Shown one piece after another: positions 32,812 through 34,152 of a stretch of 48,718 nucleotides of DNA. A program made the position numbers and the translations under genes. Origin of the DNA: a virus (lineage: Duplodnaviria; Heunggongvirae; Uroviricota; Caudoviricetes); the IMG/VR virus record IMGVR_UViG_2597489870_000007; one strand, written 5' to 3'. Numbering within the stretch: position 1 is the first letter of the stretch; each line of letters begins with the position of its first letter. Below the pieces are notes generated by a model. It was not told where the DNA came from, searched no databases, and saw nothing but the letters and a program-made list of their open reading frames with translations.

Positions 32812-32816
32812 GATCG
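32812..32816. repeat. Left 5-bp target site duplication GATCG of IS2
   Basis: Identical pentamer at 34148..34152; removing one copy restores the KilA-N reading frame. Confidence 0.8.
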
Positions 32817-32827
32817 TGTATTTGCCC

Positions 32828-33733
32828 CTATATTTCCAGACACCTGTTATCACTTAACCCATTACTGGCCCGCTGCCGTAGATATTCCCGTGGCGAGCGA
32901 TAACCCAGTGCACTATGCGGATGCCATTCGTTATAATGCTCGAACGCCTCTGCAAGATTCTTTGCTGCCGTTAACCCGTCTGGTTTGGGCATGATACTGA
33001 TGTAATCACGCTTTATCGTTTTCACGAAGCTCTCTGCTATGCCGTTACTCTCCGGACTCCGCACCGCCGTGTTCTTCGGTTCAAGTCCCAACATCCGAGC
33101 GAACTGGCGTGTTTCATTAGCCCGGTAGCATGAACCATTATCCGTCAGCCACTCCACTGGAGATGTCGGAAGCTCGCTGCCGAAGCGGCGTTCCACCGCT
33201 CCCAGCATGACGTCCTGTACTGTTTCACTGTCGAAGCCGCCCGTAGTGACCGCCCAGTGCAGTGCCTCACGGTCACAGCAGTCCAGCGCGAACGTGACTC
33301 GCAGTTTTTCTCCGTTATCACAGCGGAACTCGAACCCGTCAGAGCACCATCGTTGATTGCTTTCTTTCACGGCCACTTTGCCAGTATGTGCCCGTTTCGA
33401 TGGCGGTACAGCGGTTTTTCGCTCAAGCAACAGCGCATTCTGGCGCATGATCCGGTAAACACGTTTGGCATTGATAGCAGGCATACCATCAAGTTCGGCC
33501 TGTCTGCGAAGCAGCGCCCATACCCGACGATAACCATACGTGGGCAGCTCTCCGATAACATGGTGTATACGGAGAAGCACATCCGTATCATCTGAGTGAC
33601 GGCTGCGGCGACCATCTTTCCAGTCATCGGTTCGTCTGAGAATGACGTGCAACTGCGCACGCGACACCCGGAGACAACGGCTGACTAAGCTTACTCCCCA
33701 TCCCCGGGCAATAAGGGCGCGTGCGCTATCCAC
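32828..33733 (-). CDS. insD: IS2 transposase OrfB (InsD)
   Basis: 301-aa [80 protein letters not shown], the IS2 InsD sequence with a DDE integrase core. Confidence 0.95.
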
Positions 33734-34056
33734 TTTTTTGCACGCCCATATTCAACGGCTTCTTTAAGGAGTTCATTTTCCATCGTTTTTTTGCCGAGCA
33801 GGCGCTGGAGTTCTTTAATCTGCTTCATGGCAGCAGCAAGTTCAGAGGCAGGAACGACCTGTTCTCCTGCGGCCACAGCAGTAAGACTTCCCTCCTGGTA
33901 TTGCTTGCGCCAGAGAAATAACTGGCTGGCTGCCACACCGTGTTGCCGGGCAACAAGGGAGACCGTCATTCCCGGTTCAAAGCTCTGCTGAACAATAGCG
34001 ATCTTTTCCTGTGTAGTACGCCGTCTGCGTTTCTCCGGCCCTAAGACATCAATCAT
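33691..34056 (-). CDS. insC: IS2 OrfA (InsC)
   Basis: ATG at 34056 gives 121 aa [53 protein letters not shown], the IS2 InsC sequence. Confidence 0.95.
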
Positions 34057-34147
34057 CTGTTCTCCAATGACTAGTCTAAAAACTAGTATTAAGACTATCA
34101 CTTATTTAAGTGATATTGATTGTCTGGAGATTCAGGGGGCCAGTCTA

Positions 34148-34152
34148 GATCG
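34148..34152. repeat. Right 5-bp target site duplication GATCG of IS2
   Basis: Identical pentamer at 32812..32816. Confidence 0.8.

Follow-up and report, generated by a model that had tools for sequence, protein, structure and literature searches.

The locus described here is a prophage gene with an insertion sequence inside it, and the question that it raises is what the insertion has done: whether it has abolished the gene, a KilA-N gene, whether it alters transcription of the DUF968 and antiterminator Q genes that follow, and whether either effect has mattered to the prophage or to its host. An earlier note on this DNA had described the insertion, had called the interrupted gene antirepressor-like and had suggested that the element could also supply a promoter to its neighbors. 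The window, by which we mean the whole stretch of 48,718 nucleotides that was analyzed, is the exact reverse complement of positions 5072386-5121103 of NC_017633.1, the chromosome of E. coli strain ETEC H10407. It is filled by a whole lambdoid prophage of that strain.

The prophage of ETEC H10407

In phage order, the prophage begins with int and dsr1, next to which lies the ymfK/ymfT/ymfL immunity region. The replication and nin-like genes include dam, a LexA-like gene, rusA, kilA-N, DUF968 and Q, and the late part consists of a DNA methyltransferase gene and the lysis cassette, followed by lambda-like head and tail genes. The coordinates of the features that bear on the insertion are collected in Table 1. 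Packing around the insertion is tight, with intergenic gaps of 7 nt between kilA-N and DUF968 and 13 nt between DUF968 and Q. The lysis genes (a holin/lysozyme cassette) are intact and the virion genes are broken. The tail terminator gene gpU is split by ISCro1, which leaves the prophage unable to make tails, and the tail fibre gene is frameshifted. Together with the IS2 in kilA-N these amount to three lesions, and the prophage is decaying.

Several other features of the prophage were recorded. Adjoining the integrase gene is the cargo gene dsr1 (43485-47312, minus strand), whose 1275-aa product is annotated as the anti-phage defence sirtuin Dsr1. The DNA methyltransferase gene (350 aa; 28652-29704, minus strand) lies between Q and the holin gene and has a terminator-like hairpin after it (28645-28629); in Stx phages, the position between Q and holin is occupied by the toxin genes. 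The early operon also holds a gene for a PerC-family transcriptional regulator (yfdN-like; 35602-36096, minus strand), located upstream of the genes for the phage Dam methylase and a LexA-DNA-binding-domain protein.

Table 1. Features at and around the IS2 insertion in the H10407 prophage (positions are those of the window)
Feature	Position	Strand	Remarks
Tail fibre gene (N-terminal domain protein)	817-4175	-	frameshifted per RefSeq
ISCro1, IS66 family (tnpA, tnpB, transposase), 2699 bp	15060-17758		8-bp target site duplication GGATATCG; 15052-17766 with the duplications
Antiterminator Q gene	30312-31064	-	downstream of DUF968
DUF968 gene	31078-32067	-	downstream of the KilA-N gene; starts 7 nt past the KilA-N stop
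3' fragment of the KilA-N gene	32075-32816	-	residues 24-269 of the intact protein
Target site duplication GATCG, copy beside IRR	32812-32816		single at the empty site
IS2 isoform, complete, 1331 bp	32817-34147	-	IRL at the 34147 end, IRR at the 32817 end
IRR, 41 bp, donor end	32817-32857	-	ends ...GGGGCAAATACA-3'; terminal CA kept; 2 changes relative to K-12
orfB (insD), 301 aa	32828-33733	-	rve/DDE catalytic domain; 11 aa substitutions relative to K-12 InsD
Outward -35 (TGGAAA) of the IS2 junction promoter	32833-32838	-	intact; placed from the 17-bp rule
orfA (insC), 121 aa	33691-34056	-	protein identical to K-12 InsC
A6G (AAAAAAG) -1 frameshift window	33733-33739	-	IS positions 409-415; intact
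5' fragment of the KilA-N gene	34098-34220	-	40-aa ORF; RefSeq pseudogene ETEC_RS31875
IRL, 42 bp	34106-34147	-	begins TAGACTGGCCCCC (TA end); 1 change relative to K-12 (position 29)
Target site duplication GATCG, copy beside IRL	34148-34152		single at the empty site
rusA	34240-34629	-	upstream of the KilA-N gene

The inserted element

IS2A of E. coli K-12 MG1655 (insC1/insD1, 1331 bp), which belongs to the IS2 group of the IS3 family, served as the reference for identity. The element in the prophage has the same length as this annotated copy and is 96.09% identical to it at the nucleotide level, with 52 substitutions and no indels, and the H10407 chromosome has a second copy that matches it at 100% identity. 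Both of its proteins exceed the NCBIfam cut-offs for their IS2 families, orfA for 'IS2 repressor TnpA' (276.4 bits against 229) and orfB for 'IS2 transposase TnpB' (704.9 bits against 597). The Pfam domains are HTH_Tnp_1 in orfA and HTH_21, rve and rve_3 in orfB. The slippery A6G window is a hallmark of IS2 frameshifting (PMC3219604), and a -1 shift at the copy of it found here yields a fused OrfAB of 409 aa; RefSeq labels the element 'IS3 family transposase, programmed frameshift'. Read along the minus strand, the segment begins TAGACTGGCCCCCTGAATCTCC and finishes GGAAATATAGGGGCAAATACA. A repeat finder also caught a 33-nt core of the imperfect terminal inverted repeat, and the 41-bp reference sequence for the IRR was taken from PMC3219604.

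The H10407 copy is the same as K-12 IS2A in its length, IRL/IRR architecture (TA end, CA end), InsC, A6G window and 5-bp target site duplication (TSD), and differs from it in the substitutions already counted, which include 11 amino-acid changes in InsD, those in IRL and IRR, and the one that makes an A7 run in orfA. Judged from these comparisons, the element is an intact IS2 isoform and no new element.

The A7 run (GGCAAAAAAACG; 33786-33792, minus strand; IS positions 356-362) stands where K-12 IS2A has GGCAAGAAAACG. The change is synonymous (AAG to AAA) and was common to all nine of the fetched external copies in which this stretch was readable; a -1 slip at the run leads to a stop after six codons. 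Another variant lies at the IRR tip, where the third position from the end (32819) has A for the C of K-12, giving ...AAATACA in place of the canonical ...AAATCCA. This tip is present, and flanked by a 5-bp TSD every time, in both H10407 copies examined and in a copy from one further genome, so the variant seems to be compatible with transposition.

The exact InsD variant was found in 201 blocks of the collection. When ten such places were fetched, both IS ends were recognizable in nine, and seven of these nine had perfect 5-bp TSDs, at seven different sites. Judging from this spread, the IS2 isoform of the H10407 prophage appears to be mobile.

Target site duplication and the empty site

On the plus strand, the left junction reads ...GCGCGATGCA GATCG, with the final five bases at 32812-32816, and then TGTATTTGCCCCTATATTTCCAGACACC... 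from 32817. The right junction reads ...GGGGGCCAGTCTA, ending at 34147, and then GATCG (34148-34152) followed by TTCAGG... The direct repeat that is visible at these junctions is 7 bp long (AGATCGT, at 32811-32817 and 34147-34153), because at each end of the IS the last base is by chance the same as the target base beside it. Two other copies fix the TSD length independently: K-12 IS2A ends TAGACTGG...AAATCCA with a 5-bp TSD of ATTAC, and the second, identical H10407 copy is flanked by GTCAC. By both comparisons the TSD is 5 bp long. Two 5-mers at fixed positions would agree with a probability of ~1/1024, and the comparison with the empty site, as aligned below, leaves chance irrelevant for the GATCG repeat. 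The duplicated target holds a GATC Dam site, so that the IS is now bordered by a Dam site at either end.

Excision of 32817-34147 together with one GATCG gives an ORF of 269 aa on the minus strand that starts at 34220 and stops at 32075. This intact allele encodes WP_029488747.1. Four complete E. coli genomes carry the reconstructed 831 bp uninterrupted and at 100% identity. In an O177:H21 genome, 12.8 kb of prophage match the window at 99.9% identity, with 9 differences; the alignment falls into two blocks whose break coincides exactly with 32817 and 34147 and which overlap by the expected 7 bp. Aligned to this allele, the junctions resolve to one GATCG at the empty site. The earlier note had described an IS2 that cleanly splits the gene, is bracketed by a 5-bp GATCG duplication and on removal restores a 269-aa ORF. 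All of this was borne out: the element is IS2 by both of its protein families, the GATCG copies bracket exactly 1331 bp, both junctions are base-exact, and the related prophage carries the gene uninterrupted. The lack of substitutions in the flanks relative to the four genomes, the few differences from the O177:H21 segment and the identity of the IS to the second H10407 copy together indicate that the insertion was a recent, intragenomic event. The other four IS2 places of the H10407 chromosome are candidates for the donor copy.

Homologues of the restored gene at a query coverage of at least 80% were found in 2114 of 5426 complete genomes. These are annotated 'KilA-N domain-containing protein' and nearly always adjoin rusA. 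Within the same 5426 genomes, the occupied junction was found only in H10407 and in the SEC470 record, which has the same length and coordinates and is not independent. A spread sample drawn from the 2302 matching records contained no other IS-disrupted alleles of the gene. As far as these records reach, the insertion is unique to one strain and bears no sign of selection. Although ~60% of the complete E. coli genomes have no homologue, isolated phages carry intact copies (among them SKA5, vB_EcoM-689R6, mEp460 and Stx2c phages); the KilA-N gene is dispensable in kind.

The KilA-N protein

The restored 269-aa protein matches Pfam PF04383 (KilA-N) over residues 7-109 with 78.4 bits against a cut-off of 23.8, and over residues 4-105 it shares 40% identity with P1 KilA. 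Its last 160 aa (residues 110-269) matched no Pfam family even at E<=10, the protein matched no NCBIfam family, and the C-terminal half matched no PDB sequence. Recognized antirepressor domains (ANT, KilA-C, P22_AR) were sought in the protein and none was found. PHROGs labels the full-length family (PHROG 129) 'transcriptional regulator'. In Pseudomonas phage Alize, a counterpart of the C-terminal half follows a Bro-N domain, and counterparts are also present in Ruminococcus phage proteins annotated as Rha-like or antirepressor. This recurrence fits the known modular shuffling of phage regulators, although a function would not thereby be established.

The restored protein has the KilA-N domain in common with P1 KilA and with the modular KilA-N/Bro-N regulators, but it lacks ANT, KilA-C or any other named C-terminal domain. 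The description of the gene as KilA-N antirepressor-like can therefore be kept in its first part and not in its second: on these matches, the KilA-N domain is all that can be taken as established for the product of the split gene, and 'antirepressor-like' is a name only. Our literature search returned no paper on this protein and nothing usable on KilA-N proteins of lambdoid nin regions.

Possible effects on the downstream genes

IS2 is oriented as the phage operon is, with its IRR facing the 3' fragment, DUF968 and Q. As a side effect on these last two genes, polarity appears more plausible than promoter activity, because the gaps between the genes are tight, because DUF968 and Q lack a promoter-like site of their own and because the element would contribute ~0.9 kb of poorly ribosome-covered transcript. 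The last point follows from the way in which IS2 is expressed: ribosomes translate orfB only after an infrequent frameshift (PMC3219604), so that ~0.9 kb of the RNA would go mostly untranslated. A consensus scan of the minus strand from the IS to Q found no promoter-like site. Classical IS2 insertions in operons (gal, lac, lambda r32) are polar. As in those cases, the IS2 described here lies in a polycistronic operon (phage early-right), upstream of essential late regulation; the H10407 prophage differs from them in that it is already tail-defective. The literature search yielded nothing usable on IS2 polarity and Rho.

Polarity could be more than a side effect if the insertion had been selected as a lock, such that IS2 polarity lowers the expression of Q and the late genes upon SOS induction, sparing the host from lysis while cargo such as dsr1 is kept. 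The arrangement would suit such a lock in several ways: downstream of the IS, Q and DUF968 are without a promoter-like site of their own, and kilA-N, DUF968 and Q lie only 7 and 13 nt apart; the untranslated stretch of IS2 RNA and the classical polarity of IS2 in operons would act in the required sense; and the damage to the prophage spares the lysis genes and falls on the virion genes. Against it stand the absence of any sign of selection in an event unique to one strain and the want of other IS-disrupted alleles in the spread sample of matching records. Furthermore, polarity at this site is what we infer, and antitermination by the phage, should it operate here, would overcome it. Selection of the insertion as a lock is accordingly doubtful in our view. 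We likewise regard as unlikely a related reading in which the insertion is not neutral: Rho-dependent polarity on the tightly coupled kilA-N - DUF968 - Q block would damp Q-dependent late transcription, and H10407 could thus keep a dsr1-carrying, tail-defective prophage without the cost of SOS lysis.

The suggestion in the earlier note that IS2 could provide an outward promoter toward DUF968 and Q holds for the orientation of the element and for the -35, TGGAAA, which is intact in the IRR; a promoter of this kind would uncouple both genes from phage early control. The suggestion finds no support at the -10. IS2 has only an outward -35, in its IRR, and requires a -10 in the flank at 17 bp (PMC3219604, PMC9330008). 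In the IS2 minicircle, the IRR -35 is paired with TAGACT of the IRL across a mandatory 17-bp spacer (PMC3219604), and hybrid promoters formed by the IS2 -35 and a resident -10 are on record at ampC, acrEF and neoR (PMC9330008; for ampC, Jaurin and Normark 1983, as reviewed there). In those cases, as in the H10407 prophage, the outward -35 of the IRR faces the downstream genes, but they have a resident -10 at 17 bp and the H10407 site does not, so that the likeness does not go beyond orientation. At spacers of 15-19 bp, the hexamers of the flank (ACGATC, CGATCT, GATCTG, ATCTGC and TCTGCA) have 0-2 of 6 matches to TATAAT and lack its final T, the best candidate being GATCTG at 17 bp, with two matches.

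The consensus scan likewise found no promoter-like site at the IRR junction. Along the minus strand of the IS, it found no internal outward promoter and no intrinsic terminator by simple criteria; these promoter and terminator scans are crude. Weak read-through from the IRL promoter, which has been described as weak (PMC3219604), may occur, because there is no intrinsic terminator between insD and the flank. A hybrid outward promoter at the IS2 junction is not supported by the sequence, given the lack of a -10 in the flank and of a scan match at the junction. General phage biology also speaks against such a promoter, since strong constitutive expression of Q upstream of an intact holin/lysozyme cassette should be counter-selected. 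We therefore think it improbable that the IRR drives DUF968 and Q, and polarity is still the side effect that we would favor.

The two fragments of the split gene

The KilA-N gene is interrupted behind its codon 24 (codon 24/25). The 5' fragment consists of 24 native codons (34220-34149), an Asp codon and 15 codons read from the IRL, followed by a stop; the Asp25 codon spans the junction (34148-34146) and is GAC here and GAT in the intact gene. The start codon and ribosome binding site are gone from the 3' fragment, which has no canonical start before a TTG at 32716, and initiation at this TTG drops half of the KilA-N domain. Since what the 5' part encodes is a peptide of 40 aa, and since a start codon and a ribosome binding site are both missing from the 3' part, the simplest reading is that the KilA-N gene of H10407 would be a null allele.

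RefSeq contains a CDS of 248 aa for the 3' fragment (WP_044519660.1; 32075-32821, minus strand), which begins with ATA at 32821-32819, inside the IRR tip of IS2. This CDS is probably an artefact of homology-guided annotation. The TAG stop of InsD (32830-32828) is in frame with the 3' fragment, three codons before the junction, and this frame agreement is a 1-in-3 coincidence. The fragment could conceivably still be expressed, either as the 248-aa protein, which RefSeq has entered as a normal CDS, or as a fusion of InsD or OrfAB to KilA-N through read-through of the in-frame TAG. However, no obvious Shine-Dalgarno sequence accompanies the annotated ATA start, initiation at the first canonical start in frame would cost half of the KilA-N domain, the in-frame arrangement is to be expected by coincidence in one case out of three, and natural TAG read-through is rare. 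Expression of the fragment by either route is very improbable.

It is hardly credible that a repeated IS copy was simply misplaced in the H10407 assembly, as might be proposed from its 100% identity to another copy and from the dependence of the sole other junction record (SEC470), since the junctions are base-perfect and misassembly would not produce a 5-bp duplication of a target sequence that is single-copy at the empty site.

Conclusions

The best explanation for this locus, and one that we consider very probable, is that an active IS2 isoform recently transposed, by the copy-out/paste-in route and in this strain only, into codon 24/25 of the KilA-N gene, within the nin-like region (rusA - kilA-N - DUF968 - Q) of the lambdoid prophage of ETEC H10407. 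The insertion would have produced a null allele, with a short peptide from the 5' part and a 3' part that cannot readily be translated for want of a start and a ribosome binding site. As the decaying prophage has two further lesions, the insertion would most simply be neutral debris. Polarity would be its likeliest side effect: the 1.3 kb of poorly translated DNA that now lies between the early promoter and DUF968/Q may lower Q expression upon induction through Rho-dependent polarity. The null-allele and polar readings are both ones that we infer from the DNA.

The insertion itself is real and ordinary, being a known IS with a known duplication in a known kind of target. It is also already known, as the IS2 and the pseudogene for the 5' fragment are both in the public RefSeq annotation of H10407. 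A small annotation problem is flagged by the analysis, namely the RefSeq entry for the 3' fragment with its ATA start inside the IS tip. Any further interest would lie in whether IS2 polarity alters Q expression and lysis upon induction of the prophage. The insertion matters little beyond H10407, the reference ETEC strain in which it marks a stage in the decay of a lambdoid prophage.
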